Part shown: positions 1 through 6,312 of the stretch, piece by piece
How the letters are laid out: each line of letters begins with the position of its first letter
Numbering within the stretch: the first letter of the stretch is position 1
Virus record (IMG/VR): IMGVR_UViG_2667527806_000009
Strand: one strand, 5' to 3'
Source: a virus
Lineage: Duplodnaviria > Heunggongvirae > Uroviricota > Caudoviricetes
DNA: 6,312 nt
Program-made: the position numbers and the translations under genes
Notes under the pieces: model-generated
Database searches by the model: none
Seen by the model: only the letters and a program-made list of their open reading frames with translations
Told to the model about the DNA's origin: nothing

Positions 1-69
1 GCTGCATGACAAGGTCATCGGGCATTATCTGAACATAAAACACTATCAGTAAGTTGGAGTCATTACCTA

Positions 70-321
70 CTAACAGGATGCTCTGACTCGCAATTCATCC
101 AGCAGTTTATCATTTCCCATAATGTCACTTACCCTCATCGGTAAAAAAATTGCCTTTCGACCATTACGATACATTATTGATTTTGGGGTTTCAGGGAAGT
201 AATCCATTTCGACTATAACTGACAGGTCATCACGACGTATGACTGCGTATTTGCTACTAAATAGTTTCTTTATTTTTTCCACGATGCCCCCAGGTTTATA
301 AGTACAAACGGTTATATCCAC
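70..321 (-). CDS. rem: Small hypothetical protein, 83 aa, possibly Rem-like (Qin prophage)
   Basis: Minus-strand ORF with GTG start and no clear Shine-Dalgarno; AT-rich coding sequence. Called Rem-like only from size (83 aa) and position next to a hokD-type gene, as in E. coli K-12 Qin; sequence identity was not verified from memory. Confidence 0.4.
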   Translation of the reverse strand: MDITVCTYKPGGIVEKIKKLFSSKYAVIRRDDLSVIVEMDYFPETPKSIMYRNGRKAIFLPMRVSDIMGNDKLLDELRVRASC

Positions 322-464
322 ATAGAGACAAAAATATTAATCTGATAAATATTTATTTCACGCCGTATATTTGATTGTTTAATGTGCAAGTACAATGACT
401 TTTATTTTTTGTTGTGTATATAATCAAATATATGGTTATTTTTCACCCTGCGTATTCAGCACGC

Positions 465-490
465 AACAAAAAACCCGCCGAAGCGGGTTT
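465..490 (-). terminator. Rho-independent terminator at the 3' end of the hok transcript
   Basis: Minus-strand hairpin CCCGC-TTCG-GCGGG (plus 474-487) followed by a U-tract (minus strand GGGTTTTTTGTT), 70-90 nt downstream of the hok stop codon. Confidence 0.7.
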
Positions 491-557
491 AGTGCGGGTG
501 CGTTGAGGATGCCTGACACATGAGAGGTGGCGAGGGATTTCTCCCCCGCCTGGTCTC

Positions 558-713
558 TTACTCCTCAGGTTCGTAAGCTGTGAAGACAGCGACCTCCGTC
601 TGGCCGGTTCGGATTCGTACCTCGCAGAGGTCTTTCCTCGTTACCAGTGCCGTCACTATGACGGTTAAACAGATGACGATCAGGGCGATTAACATCGCCT
701 TTTGCTGCTTCAT
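558..713 (-). CDS. hok: Hok/Gef family type I toxin, 51 aa (HokD/RelF-like)
   Basis: Translation MKQQKAMLIALIVICLTVIVTALVTRKDLCEVRIRTGQTEVAVFTAYEPEE has the Hok family layout: one N-terminal transmembrane helix and the conserved C-terminal periplasmic segment with Cys. AAGGAG lies about 9 nt upstream of this ATG. Confidence 0.85.
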   Translation of the reverse strand: MKQQKAMLIALIVICLTVIVTALVTRKDLCEVRIRTGQTEVAVFTAYEPEE

Positions 714-770
714 AGCCTGCTTCTCCTTGCCTTTCGGCACGTAAGAGGCTAACCTACATTTGTGAGACAT
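558..770 (-). CDS. mok-like upstream reading frame (in-frame N-terminal extension of hok, 70 aa)
   Basis: ATG at 768-770 within the conserved hok leader, at the position where the mok frame starts in characterised hok/sok loci. Here it is in frame with hok. Whether it is translated as a separate modulator is not determinable from sequence. Confidence 0.35.
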   Translation of the reverse strand: MSHKCRLASYVPKGKEKQAMKQQKAMLIALIVICLTVIVTALVTRKDLCEVRIRTGQTEVAVFTAYEPEE

Positions 771-895
771 AGATTGGGCCTCAGATTAATGTTAAGCGTC
801 TTGCAGGACGCGTAATGTTAACTGGGGCTTTTCTCTGTCTGCCTTACAGTGGCATGCCCGAGGCAGACAGCCTCAAGCACCCGCAGCAATCTTAC
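714..895 (-). promoter_or_regulatory. hok mRNA 5' leader (sok target, translation-control stem-loops)
   Basis: Minus-strand leader begins near GGGTGCTTGAGGC and contains paired segments (plus 835-843 CTGTCTGCC with 862-870 GGCAGACAG). A diverged second copy lies at 2868-3014. Confidence 0.6.
760..838 (+). ncRNA. Putative Sok-like antisense RNA (copy A)
   Basis: Plus-strand segment antisense to the hok leader and mok start, with a candidate promoter (TTGCCT, 17 nt, TAACCT at 727-755) and ending near GGGGCTTTTCTCT. Boundaries are approximate and by analogy to plasmid R1 hok/sok. Confidence 0.35.
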
Positions 896-1051
896 CGATA
901 CCGATAAGAAAACGCTATTTTTTATTGCCAGCACCTTCTATCCAGGCTAATTTATCTGCGTCAGAACGGCGCAATGCGCTCGCCTGAGATACGTTTACTT
1001 GCCATGGTAACAACAGGTAACGGCAATTGCTGTTTCTGTTTTGTTTCCTTC

Positions 1052-1088
1052 AAAAACCCCGGACCATCAATCCGGGGTTTTTGTTTGT
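1052..1088. terminator. Bidirectional rho-independent terminator
   Basis: AAAAA-CCCCGGA-CCATCAA-TCCGGGG-TTTTTGTTTGTT: a 7-bp GC-rich stem flanked by an A-run and a T-run, immediately downstream of the last gene of the minus-strand operon (stop at 1168). Confidence 0.75.
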
Positions 1089-1167
1089 TAACCCCAACGG
1101 CAAATCGAATACACCACCAGCGCCACCGCCATCGCAATTCCTACCGTGGTGAATGCCTCAGGCCAGG

Positions 1168-1533
1168 TCATTGATTCACCTCCTGCGGTGGTTCCGGTAG
1201 CGGCATCCAGTGAGTTGAGCTCTCTACTTCAACGCCGTCTTTGTCCACAAAAGCCATCTTATTCCCGCCACGAGTGGGGCAAAAAACCTTATCCCAGGAA
1301 CCGGGGAATACATTCCCGAGATCATCGAGAAGAATCACATCGCAATATTCAGCAGGAACTGCATCACTACAGCTTATCCAGCCAGCCAGAGTTACCGGAG
1401 AGTTGCCAGCCTTACGCATGGCCATTTCCACGATTTCAACCATATCTCCTGGTGGAATTTTACAAAGTTGCCCAATACATTTCTGCTGCCTGGCATATTC
1501 GAGAATGTGCTCCAGTTTGGTTCGATTAATCAT
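1168..1533 (-). CDS. Hypothetical phage protein, 121 aa
   Basis: Minus-strand ORF with GGGAG about 7 nt upstream of the ATG; its start overlaps the upstream gene stop (TAATG), indicating translational coupling. No family recognised. Confidence 0.7.
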   Translation of the reverse strand: MINRTKLEHILEYARQQKCIGQLCKIPPGDMVEIVEMAMRKAGNSPVTLAGWISCSDAVPAEYCDVILLDDLGNVFPGSWDKVFCPTRGGNKMAFVDKDGVEVESSTHWMPLPEPPQEVNQ

Positions 1534-2198
1534 TATTTATCTCCCTTAAGCATGGCAGCGCGGCAGGCGTTCCAGCCATCAACATAATCAAACGTATTAC
1601 TATCGTTTGGCCCGATTTCATCCGGCACTATCGGCTCTGGTTGGATAGTGACGTTGGCAAAGGCAGCACGCAAACCGGTTTTAATTTCTTCGATTTCATC
1701 AGAGCCAAGCGATGAATCTGACAGTGCGTGATGGAATGCGTAAGCCATGTCGTCGTTTACTGCAACCGGCACTGCCGGCGCTGCGTAAAGCGGTGTTATA
1801 TCTGCCCGAAAATCACATGCTTTATGCAGTCGTACCCAACGCTCAACTTCCGCTTTGTAAAAATATATAGCAGTGAACGTATTAGATTCCTGGTCAACTT
1901 GAGTAAACGTCACCTTCCACGCTACAGCTACGGCTTTCCATCCATCAGGTTGTCGCATTCGCGGGGCAGCATAAAGCTCATGCATTCCATCAGGCAGCGA
2001 GTGACCCACATACTCACCGAACCCATCAATACACATGCCCCCATCTTCAACAATGCATTCCGCTACAGGCTCTGCTTCCAGTGATGCCAGAGCGATAAGC
2101 GCCAGTTCACGAATTTCACCGCCGTCTATATCGTCAATATCATCGCGGCCAGAAATGTTAGCCAGCCATTGCAGTCGCTCTTTGGTAATAGTAGTCAT
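1533..2198 (-). CDS. Hypothetical phage protein, 221 aa, acidic N-terminal region
   Basis: Minus-strand ORF with AAGGGG 7 nt upstream of the ATG; start overlaps the HNH gene stop (ATGA). Asp/Glu-rich N-terminus (DDIDDIDGGEIRE). No family recognised. Confidence 0.75.
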   Translation of the reverse strand: MTTITKERLQWLANISGRDDIDDIDGGEIRELALIALASLEAEPVAECIVEDGGMCIDGFGEYVGHSLPDGMHELYAAPRMRQPDGWKAVAVAWKVTFTQVDQESNTFTAIYFYKAEVERWVRLHKACDFRADITPLYAAPAVPVAVNDDMAYAFHHALSDSSLGSDEIEEIKTGLRAAFANVTIQPEPIVPDEIGPNDSNTFDYVDGWNACRAAMLKGDK

Positions 2199-2560
2199 GC
2201 CGTAGCCCCTTCTTGATATATTTCAAACCAGAACACAACCGGGTCAGATTTCATTTCAACCAATCCCATACGAACCAGCGCTTTGCCTTTCCCGGACGCA
2301 AGGAATTCACGACGACCATCACTGATAATTCGTCGATAATCTTCCAGGCTACTGCAATGCTTGTGCAGATTGCATGGGTGGCATTCTGGTACCATGTTGG
2401 ATATATCGTCACGTTCCTGGTGAAGCATATTTCCATCAAAACGAATGACCGGTTTTACATGGTCTGCATGCCACTTTTCGCCAAGTTCGCAGCCGCAATA
2501 AGCGCAGCGACCACCGAACTTCATGCGCAGTTCTGCACGTTGTTTTTTCGTCAGTGCCAT
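2195..2560 (-). CDS. HNH endonuclease, 121 aa
   Basis: Translation contains the HNH motif: CAYCGC, HADH, an Asn, then CHPCNLHKH. Start placed at the internal ATG (MALTKK...) preceded by AAGGAAAG at good spacing; the 151-aa ORF-track extension from 2650 has no SD and would overlap the upstream small ORF. Confidence 0.8.
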   Translation of the reverse strand: MALTKKQRAELRMKFGGRCAYCGCELGEKWHADHVKPVIRFDGNMLHQERDDISNMVPECHPCNLHKHCSSLEDYRRIISDGRREFLASGKGKALVRMGLVEMKSDPVVFWFEIYQEGATA

Positions 2561-2561
2561 A

Positions 2562-2780
2562 TCAGCTTTCCTTATACGGATTAATTTTATTGTGCAGTGT
2601 GTTGAATGACGCCCATACCACGTCGTTATACAATTCAATAACTGGCTCAATTATTTTTCCGATTATCCAGACAAAAATTTGCGGGGATATCGGTGTCATC
2701 AACACGATAAACAGAATGAGAAACAGGAATTCTGTTGTTCTACTCTTTCGCGGATATTTTTTTCTAAATAATGTAACCAT
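2562..2780 (-). CDS. Small hydrophobic (putative membrane) protein, 72 aa
   Basis: Minus-strand ORF with a hydrophobic stretch (FLFLILFIVLMTPISPQIFVWIIGKII); its stop is 1 nt before the HNH start (TGAnATG). The ATG sits 6 nt after the terminal hairpin of the 70-bp repeat. AT-rich with no canonical SD, so coding status is uncertain. Confidence 0.4.
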   Translation of the reverse strand: MVTLFRKKYPRKSRTTEFLFLILFIVLMTPISPQIFVWIIGKIIEPVIELYNDVVWASFNTLHNKINPYKES

Positions 2781-2786
2781 TCATTA

Positions 2787-2856
2787 CCGCCCTTTCGGGC
2801 GGTCTCCTGATGATTTGAGGGTGCAGAAATCCCTCCGGTTAAGGATTAAATTTTTA
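2787..2856. repeat. 70-bp structured direct repeat, copy 1 (abuts the N gap)
   Basis: Identical over all 70 nt to 3816-3885. Contains a GNRA-type hairpin (minus strand CCGCCC-GAAA-GGGCGG) and a second stem GAGGG..CCCTC. May extend into the N run. Confidence 0.9.
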
Positions 2857-2866
2857 NNNNNNNNNN
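2857..2866. other. Run of 10 N (unresolved sequence or scaffold gap)
   Basis: Ten ambiguous bases lie between the 70-bp repeat and the hok-B leader, where a hok-type CDS of about 180 bp would be expected. Confidence 0.95.
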
Positions 2867-2867
2867 T

Positions 2868-3014
2868 GTAAGAGGCTAACCTACATGTGCAAAGCATGAA
2901 ATTGGCCTCAGATTAATGTTAAGCGTCTTGCCGGACGCGTAATGTTAACTGGGGCTTTTCTCTATCTGCCTTTTGGTGTTCATGCCTGAAGCAGATAGCC
3001 TCAAGCACCCGCAG
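2868..3014 (-). promoter_or_regulatory. Second hok-type leader (hok-B) with mok-like start, truncated by the gap
   Basis: About 147 bp alignable to 741-886 at roughly 85-90% identity by eye. A mok-like ATG at 2895-2897 (minus) opens a frame (MLCTCRLASY...) that runs into the N gap. Confidence 0.6.
2887..2965 (+). ncRNA. Putative Sok-like antisense RNA (copy B)
   Basis: Homologous to the copy-A antisense segment, ending near GGGGCTTTTCTCT; the expected -35 region would fall in the N gap. Boundaries approximate. Confidence 0.3.
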
Positions 3015-3067
3015 TCATTCTACTTACCTCGCCAATATGAAATCAATCAGAAAGGTGCCCCATAAAA

Positions 3068-3754
3068 TCACTCCTTCTCTTCTTTACCGTAGTGGAGTTG
3101 ACCAATTTTGATAAGAGGGCGTCCCTGAGATTTGCGGTGTAGATTGGTATCGCGCAGAGAATACACACAGCCACAATATTCCTGCTGATAGAATTTTTCG
3201 CGCTTGCTGATTTCAATCATACGGGACGAGCCGCCCTGCTTGCGCCAGTTATAATCCCAGTACACCATGCCCGGATAATGCGCGACGGCTCGCCGCCCAC
3301 AGTCGTTAACCTGCTGCATATTTTTCCAGCGTGAAATGCCCAGTGAACTGCTGATCACACTGAAACCATTTTCAGCGGCGTACAGCGCTGTCCGCTCAAA
3401 ACGCATGTCAAAACACATGGTGCAACGGATCCCTCGTTCGGGCTCCCATTCCATTCCTTTGGCTCGTTCAAACCAGTTGTCTGTGTCGTAATCAGCATCA
3501 ATAAACGGCACGCCGTGTTGTTCAGCAAAGCGAATATTCTCATCCTTACGAATTAAATACTCTTTCTGAGGATGAATGTTCGGGTTGTAGAAAAAGATGG
3601 TGTAGTCGATTTCCGAGGCCTGAAGCGCCTCCATCACCTCACCGGAACATGGAGCACAGCAAGAGTGCAGTAGTAGTTTGTTTGCCCCGTTTGGGAGCTC
3701 CAATTTGGGCCGTTTGAAATCAGCAACTGTCATAAATATGTTTATTGAGGTCAT
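3068..3754 (-). CDS. queH: Epoxyqueuosine reductase QueH family protein (DUF208), 228 aa
   Basis: Translation carries the QueH/DUF208 signature Cys motifs: [11 protein letters not shown] near the N-terminus, [14 protein letters not shown], and C-terminal EYCGCVYS. No clear SD before the first ATG, so the exact start is uncertain. Confidence 0.8.
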
Positions 3755-3815
3755 AAAAATATCAAAGAGTGTAGCATTAGAACGGGGCTATCGGAAACAG
3801 ATGTGTGACTGCTCC

Positions 3816-3885
3816 CCGCCCTTTCGGGCGGTCTCCTGATGATTTGAGGGTGCAGAAATCCCTCCGGTTAAGGATTAAATTTTTA
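3816..3885. repeat. 70-bp structured direct repeat, copy 2
   Basis: Identical to 2787-2856, same orientation, offset 1029 bp. Sits in the intergenic space between the 3902 stop and the queH start. Confidence 0.9.
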
Positions 3886-3901
3886 ACAGTGCTAAATTTA
3901 A

Positions 3902-4258
3902 TTATTCAGTTCTGGATTTTGTCGCCCTGCGTATCCGCGCTTTCGCGTTACGCTCAATCTGTATCAGCTTTTCTATATTTCTCCGCCTTTCCTGTTCCTC
4001 CTGGCGCAATAGCCTTACATCATCTGCCAGTCTGGTTTCTCTTTTTGCCACAGAGAGCATCCAGTCAAACGGCTCCACAACCGCACCGCAGATTTTACAG
4101 CGGACCTGACGCTCTTTTTCGTCAACCCGTACAGAGGCGTGATGGCAATATGGTCTTTCCGATGGCTTATAAAGAAAATTAACCTGATTACGAGGGTCAT
4201 CCTCTTTTATCGGAAATAAAACGATATTGCTTAACTCATCTTCTGGTTTTATTTCCAT
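3902..4258 (-). CDS. Small putative zinc-ribbon protein, 118 aa (137 aa if started at 4315)
   Basis: CHH...CKICG Cys/His cluster and a basic, coiled-coil-like C-terminus. Preferred start is the ATG at 4256-4258, preceded by AAGGAG at 6-nt spacing; the alternative ATG at 4313-4315 abuts the upstream stop (TGAATG). Confidence 0.55.
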   Translation of the reverse strand: MEIKPEDELSNIVLFPIKEDDPRNQVNFLYKPSERPYCHHASVRVDEKERQVRCKICGAVVEPFDWMLSVAKRETRLADDVRLLRQEEQERRRNIEKLIQIERNAKARIRRATKSRTE

Positions 4259-4315
4259 GCTCCTCTCCTTTGATGCGAATGCCAGCGGTAATTGAAGCCT
4301 GATAGCTAATTTCAT

Positions 4316-4738
4316 TCACAGTATCGCCTCCTGAAAATTACCCTGATAGAAAGCCAGTACACGCTGCATAGCTTCGCTCTTCCGGCACTCGCGACAGATT
4401 ATATTCAGGCGCCTGTCGTAGCGGCGTATTTCTCCGTCAGGTAATGACCAGATAAGGTCCGGATCAACAACAACCGGTTTCCTCACCTTTACTCTCGAGA
4501 GTTTTTTGCGGGCGCTTTGCCAGTCCTTGCGAGCCTGTTCAGACGGGAATAAGCCGTAGCCAGAATTATATACATCACCACTTGCGACCAGTTCTATGCA
4601 TAAGCGACCGACAGACGCACGACTGATACCTGTTTCATCGGACAACTGCCGAATCGTGACCCGACCGTCCTGATGCACGAGTTCCACAATTCGCGTCTTC
4701 AGTTCTTCCCGCTGTTCGGGAGTAAAAGGTTTCGCCAT
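4316..4738 (-). CDS. Putative winged-helix/HTH DNA-binding protein with C-terminal CxxC, 140 aa
   Basis: AGGAGG upstream of the ATG. HTH-like segment (TIRQLSDETGISRASVGRL) and C-terminal CRECRK. No named family recognised. Confidence 0.7.
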   Translation of the reverse strand: MAKPFTPEQREELKTRIVELVHQDGRVTIRQLSDETGISRASVGRLCIELVASGDVYNSGYGLFPSEQARKDWQSARKKLSRVKVRKPVVVDPDLIWSLPDGEIRRYDRRLNIICRECRKSEAMQRVLAFYQGNFQEAIL

Positions 4739-4752
4739 AAATCCTCCTGAAA

Positions 4753-5499
4753 CTACTTAACAACCCTCGAATGGCTAACATTCGGACGCCAGCTCTCCCA
4801 GTTAAAATTCACCCAGCGCCCGCCGTTCATGACCATGCGATCCATCACCCGCTCGCCGAGAAGTGTATTCATCGCTGCATGGTTAATATTTGTCAGCATC
4901 CCCACACCGCGTAACGATGCCGTCCGGCGATCAACAATCTGGTTCAGTACCACCTGCTCGTTTTTCGTATCCCGCTGCATGCCAATTTCATCCAGGACCA
5001 GCAGGTCAACACCACAAAGCTCCTGTAAAAATTTTTCACCGGATTTGCCGTTGTCGTAGCTCTCATGCAACACGCTCATGACATCGGACACGGTGACGAT
5101 AATCACGCTACGCCCCTTCGCCATCAGCCGGTTGCCAATCGCGGCTGCAAGATGATTTTTTCCGGTGCCGGGCTTACCGCTGAACACAAAATTCGTACAG
5201 CCTGTCATCAGTTCGTCAGCTATGGATTTCGCCTGACTCAGTGCATGTCGCTGACCGTCGTTCTGCGCCCGGTAATTCGCAAACGAACACTTCCGGTGCA
5301 ACGGCTGGATGCCGGAGCGGTTCAGGATTTTTTCCACCCGCAACTGACGATTCAGGCGGTTGATCTCCTCGCAACGTTTCTGGCCTTCAGCAAGTTGCCA
5401 CTCGCGCCACTCCGCAACCGTTCTGAATGGGGCGGTTACATGTGGTGGGGTCAGTCTGCGGATACGCTCCAGAACGCCTCCTGTCGCAATATTTTTCAT
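4753..5499 (-). CDS. DnaC/IstB-like AAA+ helicase loader (phage replication protein P-type), 248 aa
   Basis: Walker A GKPGTGKNHLAAAIG and Walker B LLVLDEIG; positioned directly after the putative initiator, as in lambdoid replication modules with a DnaC-like loader (Rac ydaU/ydaV arrangement). Confidence 0.85.
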   Translation of the reverse strand: MKNIATGGVLERIRRLTPPHVTAPFRTVAEWREWQLAEGQKRCEEINRLNRQLRVEKILNRSGIQPLHRKCSFANYRAQNDGQRHALSQAKSIADELMTGCTNFVFSGKPGTGKNHLAAAIGNRLMAKGRSVIIVTVSDVMSVLHESYDNGKSGEKFLQELCGVDLLVLDEIGMQRDTKNEQVVLNQIVDRRTASLRGVGMLTNINHAAMNTLLGERVMDRMVMNGGRWVNFNWESWRPNVSHSRVVK

Positions 5500-5505
5500 G
5501 GTCTG

Positions 5506-6144
5506 TTACCCCCTGAAGCCTGGCGGGATCGCACTGTCCGGCAACGAGACGGTGTTAACCTGTCGGAGCAACGTCTCAGGCCGAACACCTTTCGGCGCGA
5601 ACAGGCCCTGGTATTCATTGGCGATGCTGTGTCGAATCACCTGCTCAGGTGTAAAACCCTGCTGACGGAATTTTTCCAGTTCCCGTATCGCCCCGTTAGC
5701 GCCCAGCTCCGTTCGAATCGGTTTTCGCAATGCCTGCCTGAACTGGACCCACTCATGCCAGAGTGTTTCTGACAACCAGTCGGGCAGATCAACTGACAAC
5801 GGGTCAAATTTTTTCTGGCGAACAGCCCCACCGATAACCAGAATTCCCTGCTCGGTGTGCCTTGCGATATCACTGCGCCGCAAGACACATATCCCGGTTT
5901 CAACAGCACCGATTTTGAGCAGTGATTTCTGTCGCGGAGAATTTCGGTCAAGCTCGATCCCACACCGGACACCGTTCCTGTCAGTCACGACGATATCAAT
6001 CCGCCCTCCGCAACCGTCACCACGCTCTGGCACCGGATACTCACGACAGACATCCAGGCCAGCAGCCTGCAACGCAACCACCGCAGAATTACAAAATTCC
6101 GCTGCAGTACCGCCAGATAATCTCCCCTCAAGCACTCCAGCCAC
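5506..6144 (-). CDS. Putative phage replication initiation protein (O-like/YdaU-type), 212 aa
   Basis: GTG start; it is the first ATG/GTG/TTG in a frame open back to 6289. Function inferred from its position upstream of the DnaC-like loader (6-nt gap) and a helical C-terminal domain; family not confirmed. Confidence 0.55.
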   Translation of the reverse strand: MAGVLEGRLSGGTAAEFCNSAVVALQAAGLDVCREYPVPERGDGCGGRIDIVVTDRNGVRCGIELDRNSPRQKSLLKIGAVETGICVLRRSDIARHTEQGILVIGGAVRQKKFDPLSVDLPDWLSETLWHEWVQFRQALRKPIRTELGANGAIRELEKFRQQGFTPEQVIRHSIANEYQGLFAPKGVRPETLLRQVNTVSLPDSAIPPGFRG

Positions 6145-6189
6145 AAAATCCCGAAACTCCCTTCCGGAAGGGAAGGGTTTGGGATGGGT

Positions 6190-6225
6190 TAGATCTGTTT
6201 TTAGATCTTTATCTGTATCTTTATT
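6190..6225. repeat. Cluster of short direct repeats (AGATCT x2, ATCTGT x2, ATCTTTAT x2)
   Basis: TTAGATCTGTTTTTAGATCTTTATCTGTATCTTTATT in the upstream region of the replication gene; function unknown (possible protein-binding sites). Confidence 0.3.
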
Positions 6226-6278
6226 AGTTGCCTTTGTGTTGGCATCTAGACTGGCCCCCTGAATCTCCAGACAACCAG

Positions 6279-6298
6279 TATCACTTATTTAAGTGATA
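6279..6298. promoter_or_regulatory. Operator-like inverted repeat (candidate CI/Cro-type repressor site)
   Basis: TATCACTTA-TT-TAAGTGATA: 9-bp perfect inverted arms around a 2-bp centre. TATCAC is the half-site core of lambda operators. Lies upstream of the replication operon at the window edge. Confidence 0.45.
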
Positions 6299-6312
6299 GT
6301 CTTAATACTAGT

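Follow-up and report, generated by a model that had tools for sequence, protein, structure and literature searches.

The described systems closest to the locus analyzed here are hok/sok of plasmid R1 and the chromosomal and prophage homologues of the HokD type (e.g. WP_014532198.1). The mok leader frame begins approximately 115 nt into the mRNA and overlaps hok, and the R1 mok start codon includes mRNA nucleotides 117–118 (PMC9841398). The window, by which we mean the whole 6,312-nt stretch of DNA that was analyzed, contains one complete hok/sok locus (hok-A/sok-A) and the 5´ part of a second one (hok-B/sok-B), which has the same conserved 5´ leader as the plasmid and prophage systems and is cut by exactly 10 N at positions 2857–2866. 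Comparison with closed chromosomes suggests that this N run is very probably a scaffold join that connects parts of two defective prophages with partly identical sequences, and not new biology.

Layout of the window

All genes of the window are located on the minus strand and belong to the early region of a Rac/ydaV-type lambdoid prophage. Read from right to left, the order is a ydaU-like gene, ydaV (IstB-like ATPase), DUF977, a 118/137-aa zinc-ribbon-like protein, a 70-nt sequence that occurs twice in the window (R), QueH and the sok-B leader; after the leader follow the 10 N, R again, DUF4014, HNH, a 221-aa protein, DUF551, sok-A/hok-A and an 83-aa ORF. The main segments are listed below, in which X and Y denote two prophage loci of closed chromosomes.

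1–67, no strand: IS1 end, the terminal 67 nt at the left end of the scaffold, which match the IS1A element
68–2786, minus strand: X-specific branch with the 83-aa hypothetical gene, hok-A/sok-A, DUF551, the 221-aa protein, HNH and DUF4014 (2562–2780)
2787–2856, no strand: first copy of R, an exact repeat that forms the final 70 nt of contig 1 and the start of the block common to X and Y
2857–2866, no strand: N run, the putative scaffold join of contig 1 (1–2856) and contig 2 (2867–6312); the gap size is not measured
2867–3815, minus strand: Y-specific branch with the sok-B leader and QueH (CDS 3068–3733), which has no mismatch to five Y loci
3816–4905, no strand: block common to X and Y, which opens with the second copy of R (3816–3885) and holds the 118/137-aa hypothetical gene and the DUF977 gene
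6247–6312, no strand: IS3-family (IS2-like) end, the terminal 66 nt at the right end of the scaffold

The N run cuts the hok/sok leader (2867–3010, minus strand) 30 nt past its mok-like ATG, and self-comparison of the window shows that 2787–2856, directly on the other side of the gap, is an exact 70-nt copy of 3816–3885. Both points agree with the initial annotation, in which the hok-B leader and its mok-like start run into the 10 N, with the 70-bp repeat opposite; the same coordinates, leader and ATG were recovered.

Closed X loci carry an IS1 gene at the position that matches window 1–67. The sequence at 6247–6312 is found at 19,080 places in E. coli genomes and adjoins an IS3-family transposase; closed X loci have this element too. 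All contig ends fall within or next to repeated DNA, and closed genomes have both IS elements at matching positions; the window thus looks like one entire short-read scaffold of two contigs, which extends from an IS1 end to an IS3-family end.

Three further observations concern the layout. The QueH CDS (3068–3733, minus strand; Pfam match of 220 bits) encodes an epoxyqueuosine reductase; here the gene is an accessory one within a defective lambdoid prophage and lies immediately upstream of a hok/sok locus. An AT-rich stretch at 6185–6240 with repeated AGATCT/ATCTKT motifs (tagatctgtttttagatctttatctgtatctttat) is located just upstream of the ydaU-like ORF, beside the IS insertion point, and could be an origin or iteron-like sequence of the replication module. 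Between DUF551 and sok-A (981–1088), a 13-bp terminator-like hairpin at 1051–1083 (plus strand) lies between an A-tract and a T-tract; it may terminate in both directions, and is overlapped only by sub-threshold Rfam matches (STnc30 and PsrR1).

The two hok/sok loci

The window holds the following parts of the two loci.

468–882, minus strand: hok-A/sok-A, complete, with the hok CDS (558–713), the mok ATG (768–770), the fbi-like CCTCAACGCACCC and a terminator (471–490)
625–739, minus strand: stretch common to hok-A and hok-B, 115 nt that are identical to hok-B directly past the gap edge in Y loci
2867–2897, minus strand: mok-like frame of copy B, first 10 codons, with the ATG at 2895–2897
2867–3010, minus strand: hok-B leader/sok-B region, mRNA nucleotides 1–144 only, cut by the contig end

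hok-A/sok-A matches Rfam RF01794 with 118.1 bits at 708–882 and Pfam HOK_GEF with 82.9 bits, and its terminator was returned by the terminator scan. A sub-threshold Rfam match to isrK (30.6 bits vs a gathering score of 50) covers the hok-A 3´ UTR and terminator at 468–549 (minus strand), which probably reflects no more than terminator-type hairpins that the two share.

The hok-B leader, which corresponds to the conserved tac/ucb/sokT region of hok mRNA, also matches RF01794 (sok/hok leader), with 92.2 bits at a gathering score of 59 (E = 2e-20). The match spans 2844–3010 and crosses the Ns; real sequence is aligned only up to model position ~128, and the remainder, which falls on the Ns, is a spurious tail of low posterior probability. 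The mok-like ATG of copy B lies exactly in register with the mok ATG of copy A (offset 2127) and corresponds to putative mRNA nucleotides 114–116. The frames begin with MLCTCRLASY in copy B and MSHKCRLASY in copy A.

Inside the window, no Hok CDS (HOK_GEF) was found for copy B, and the contig stops 27 nt upstream of the CDS start; likewise, no fbi element or terminator was found for copy B within the window, where R was considered as a candidate and showed no hok likeness. Copy B lacks its CDS and 3´ elements in the window because the contig ends there. The leader (2867–3010) is 100% identical to the Y loci, in which hokD comes next: beyond the gap edge, the leader runs on for 27 nt, and after it come a 156-nt CDS and a 3´ UTR that contains the fbi-like CCTCAACGCACCC and a terminator. 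The CDS is a 51-aa Hok ORF (Pfam PF01848 HOK_GEF, 81.1 bits) that starts 27 nt past the gap edge in the closed Y loci, and the mok-like frame of copy B goes on to 70 aa. The hok-B product (MKQQKAMLIALIVICLTVIVTALVTRKDLCEVRIRTGQTEVAVFVDYESRK) is encoded within this 70-aa mok frame; the variants that mark the hok-B CDS are ...CTCTGTGAGG... and the C-terminus VDYESRK. Both the Hok ORF and the 70-aa mok frame are present in every closed genome that has the identical QueH-sok-B segment. hok-B is thus an ordinary prophage type I toxin-antitoxin locus of the hokD type that is already annotated in RefSeq genomes.

In copy A, the sequence TTGCCT-17 nt-TAACCT on the plus strand (727–755) was picked out by eye as a putative sok promoter. 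Copy B retains TAACCT (2877–2882), and its putative sok-B -35 position, by consensus reading only, falls in the N run. A consensus promoter scan of the window reported neither of these two putative sok promoters.

Relative to hok-A (468–500), the terminator hairpin of hok-B in Y loci carries an insertion of ~25 nt (CATCGCTGTGATCTCTCAGCGTTTC) in its loop region. Most S. flexneri Y loci have an IS3-family element ~280 nt downstream of the hok-B stop codon, and one Y locus keeps a Rem-like gene.

The 70-nt repeat

The initial annotation had put R opposite the hok-B leader, across the gap. As the far side of the hok-B locus, R fails on two grounds: R is unlike hok, and Y loci have R only upstream of QueH. 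Local alignment of R with both hok loci gave scores of 14–22, as compared with a mean of ~16 and a maximum of 24–27 for shuffled sequences, and no Rfam family matches R at E ≤ 1. R folds only modestly better than its shuffles (z = -2.7), and a GC hairpin without a U tract is found in it. R was therefore rejected as the hok-B 3´ region on the basis of its shuffle-level alignment, the missing Rfam match and the hairpin without a U tract. No copy of R was found downstream of hok-B in any Y locus examined, each of which contains R once.

The left copy of R terminates exactly at the N run. Its 70 nt are consequently a minimum length set by the contig end and not the natural boundary of a repeat, and this copy is most simply viewed as an assembler overlap.

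Two prophage loci in closed chromosomes

Exact DUF4014 and QueH proteins were used to find closed, IS-rich chromosomes (4.4–4.7 Mb), which include CP012137.1 (Shigella flexneri 2a strain 981). These chromosomes resolve the window into two loci. The order of locus X is IS3-family element, ydaU-like, ydaV, DUF977, the 118-aa hypothetical gene, R, DUF4014, HNH, 221 aa, DUF551, Hok, a hypothetical gene and IS1. The order of locus Y is DUF977, the 118-aa hypothetical gene, R, QueH, sok-B and hok-B.

Locus X equals window 1–2856 fused straight to 3816–6312 via one copy of R. In ten closed or near-closed chromosomes, both IS ends included, the two parts are collinear and have precisely the 70 nt of R in common: 1–2856 aligns to subject positions 7780–4925 and 3816–6312 to 4994–2498, with a single R at 4925–4994. 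Window 1–2856 is 100% identical to X in five records, and 3816–6312 shows 2–3 mismatches. The X-specific branch (68–2786) is likewise 100% identical in five closed X-locus records, CP024981.1 among them, and the Y-specific branch (2867–3815) is missing from the closed X loci examined. The left flank of the gap (DUF4014-R) thus runs directly into the sequence of window 3886 in closed genomes.

Locus Y corresponds to window 2867–3815, which has 0 mismatches in CP182555.1, CP045941.1, NXMF01000001.1 and CP012137.1 and is followed by the HOK_GEF ORF. In these same four chromosomes, X and Y are 0.43–0.56 Mb apart and located on opposite strands. With CP045941.1 as the reference, the window is partitioned as follows.

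1–2856: X
2857–2866: 10 N
2867–3815: Y-specific
3816–4905: common to X and Y
4906–6312: X-specific

Judged from sequence comparison, the closed genomes show the two sides of the gap to come from different loci: there the left one continues with the sequence from 3886 on, and the right one leads into a complete hok-B locus.

Searches of complete E. coli genomes

Both gap flanks together were found in none of 5,426 complete E. coli genomes when ~875 nt were allowed between the pieces, and the arrangement of the window itself was equally absent (0 of 5,426) when the whole window was searched with a joining tolerance of ~3.6 kb. The two flanks split by any 10 bases have no match in viral, genome and metagenome collections.

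VL40 and FDAARGOS_944 are the genomes that match best (98.7% identity), with one alignment to 68–2856 and a second from 3816 on. These share precisely the 70 nt of R, which leaves one copy of R at this locus and no QueH/sok-B segment in between. The segment 2867–3885 finds its match in a different prophage, at 100% identity in FDAARGOS_943 and at 99.8% (two mismatches) in FDAARGOS_944; in the prophages of both genomes, hokD is annotated 27 nt past the position of the gap edge.

An artificial junction was made by joining 2600–2856 to 3886–4142, with the 10 N, sok-B, QueH and one copy of R deleted. It is covered to at least 80% in 257 of the 5,426 complete genomes. Among the matches listed, FDAARGOS_944 (99.4%) and several others contain it in one collinear piece, and other matches listed have an insert of 0.4–0.7 kb between the halves. 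The hokD-sok-QueH block is covered to at least 80% in approximately 2,129 of the 5,426 genomes and is a single collinear piece among the matches listed.

Repeat boundaries at the break

Within each paired genome, X and Y are exactly identical from the first base of R, and the identity extends 0 nt to the left of it. The identical block measures 619 nt in CP012137.1 and two other records, 1,090 nt in CP045941.1 and 314 nt in E. coli FDAARGOS_944. R is therefore no 70-bp repeat: its 70 nt are the beginning of a much longer block (619–1090 nt in the paired genomes) that is present in two copies and is truncated by the end of contig 1.

The other contig end shows a comparable boundary. Window position 2867 is the last base that tells copy B from copy A (T vs C), and the next 115 nt in Y, which comprise leader, hok start and most of the CDS, equal hok-A 625–739 in all four paired genomes except NXMF01000001.1, as well as in FDAARGOS_944; in NXMF01000001.1, the identity of hok-A and hok-B past 2867 measures 102 nt. 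The 115-nt hok repeat is evidently what ended contig 2. The earlier suggestion that repeats broke the assembly is therefore borne out, as both contig ends sit on exact-repeat boundaries, one of the block common to X and Y and one of the 115-nt hok block. Distinct modules lie between the two common blocks, which makes the X and Y modules alternative branches that the scaffold laid end to end.

Across thousands of assemblies, the DUF4014 protein is mostly found on contigs of 2–5 kb and QueH mostly on contigs below 2 kb; the X and Y branches have just these lengths, in agreement with the two-branch model. CP024981.1 breaks independently at the same points: it has 99-N gaps at both ends of the common block (window 3816–4809), each bordered by an identical 98 nt, a duplicated border of the kind that R forms here. 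This record, entered as closed, is to all appearance really a scaffold with unmerged k-1 overlaps. Its 99-N runs are located at 3705–3803 and 4798–4896, and more N runs occur where IS elements sit, as also in record L010 (2181–4512).

The contig ends are asymmetric: contig 1 keeps 70 nt of its repeat and contig 2 keeps 0 nt of the hok repeat. No single k-mer size fits the lengths kept at the four ends (70, 0, 67 and 66 nt), and no assembler is named here.

Discussion

The source of the window is most likely a Shigella flexneri-type genome with two defective lambdoid prophages, X and Y, whose structure we infer from related closed genomes. X and Y would have two exact blocks in common, one of at least 619 nt that opens with R and one of 115 nt from the hok leader and CDS; between them, X would hold DUF4014-HNH-221aa-DUF551-sok-A and Y would hold QueH-sok-B. 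Such a structure is beyond the reach of short reads: the assembler would have ended the X branch 70 nt into the common block and cut off the Y branch directly in front of the common hok block, at the last base outside it. The alternative X and Y branches would then have been set in series with a minimal 10-N spacer. Read pairs that reach into the common blocks probably connected the contigs in this order and orientation and implied a negative distance, which would have been written as a minimum gap. Velvet writes any gap below 10 bp as 10 N, and NCBI tools take runs of at least 10 N as gaps. A literature search for the convention of a 10-N minimum gap yielded nothing usable.

The gap had been proposed to hide a second hok gene. 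What holds of this proposal is that a hok CDS follows the leader in closed genomes; what does not hold is its location. hok-B almost certainly exists in the source genome, yet not between these two flanks. Were this a single locus whose gap is genuine and exceeds 10 bp, the missing part would contain the hok-B CDS and the first part of its 3´ region, followed by a second genuine R and then DUF4014, and the prophage would carry two serial hok loci. The leader and mok-like start that run into the Ns are what this arrangement predicts, as is the hok CDS that homologous loci place 27 nt past the gap edge. However, no Y locus has R downstream of hok-B, and R aligns with the hok loci at 14–22, below the shuffle maximum of 24–27. 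DUF4014-R consistently continues into the hypothetical gene at 3886 onward, the two flanks lie within 3.6 kb of each other in 0 of 5426 complete E. coli genomes, and in closed S. flexneri-type genomes they are ~0.5 Mb apart and mutually inverted, all of which makes a single locus very improbable. A truncated hok-B, in which deletion or illegitimate recombination had joined the leader to R via ~10 unresolved or masked bases, agrees with the nominal length of the N run and with nothing else among our results, and we give it hardly any credence. The flanks with any 10 bases between them are unmatched in the viral, genome and metagenome collections, and none of the 5426 complete E. coli genomes searched has them together. 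Moreover, both sides of the break fall, to the base, on exact-repeat boundaries, which is expected of an assembler and not of a deletion. The direct joining of leader and R, which the initial annotation had named as the finding that would speak against a hidden gene, was not seen either, in closed genomes or in the junction searches.

A different possibility accepts that the flanks are not neighbours but treats contig 2 as real. An exchange of arms between X and Y by homologous recombination, with an inversion of ~0.5 Mb, would link QueH-sok-B-hok-B to the replication genes of X. Contig 2 is indeed Y-like up to 4435–4810 and X-like beyond 4861/4906, the assembler did thread a path from Y to X, and X and Y are in opposite orientation in the four closed genomes, where recombination in the 0.6–1.1 kb block would invert and not delete the DNA between them. 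Nevertheless, none of the closed genomes examined has the combination of contig 2 (Y branch, common block and X right arm) in one piece. An exact repeat of 0.6–1.1 kb exceeds the resolution of short-read inserts, and an arbitrary threading of contig 2 is therefore equally expected; we regard the exchange as unlikely. A scaffold join of pieces from two prophages is the reading that we prefer.

Several consequences follow for the use of this record. It would be wrong to interpret the scaffold as a prophage with two serial hok loci or with a truncated or pseudogenised hok-B, and the apparent 70-bp repeat should be annotated neither as a biological repeat nor as belonging to hok. Closed genomes already have annotation for the locus with hok-B and QueH. 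Where toxin-antitoxin genes are counted in short-read drafts of Shigella and E. coli, hok copies that are collapsed onto each other will be missed.

Comparison with known systems

As in plasmid R1 hok/sok, the DNA identical to copy B continues, in closed genomes, into a HOK_GEF protein, a mok frame, the fbi-like CCTCAACGCACCC and a terminator. Unlike R1 hok/sok, the copy B locus is located in a defective lambdoid prophage, and the window holds only nucleotides 1–144 of its mRNA.

The break itself resembles the repeat-induced mis-scaffolding known from short-read (de Bruijn graph) assemblies. The four contig ends are located at or within ~70 nt of repeat edges (IS1, the block common to X and Y, the hok block and the IS3-family element), and a duplicated stretch borders the join. 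It differs from the usual repeat break in that both alternative branches are set in series and neither is left as a separate contig.

R also has the character of a mosaic boundary in lambdoid prophages of the Rac/ydaV type, as it marks the point where ydaV-DUF977-hyp meets either the QueH module or the DUF4014-HNH module. These accessory modules end again in a conserved hok/sok locus, which is followed by DUF1367 nin-type genes. Compared with such mosaics, nothing is unusual here, and the apparent tandem of two modules would be an artefact of the scaffold.
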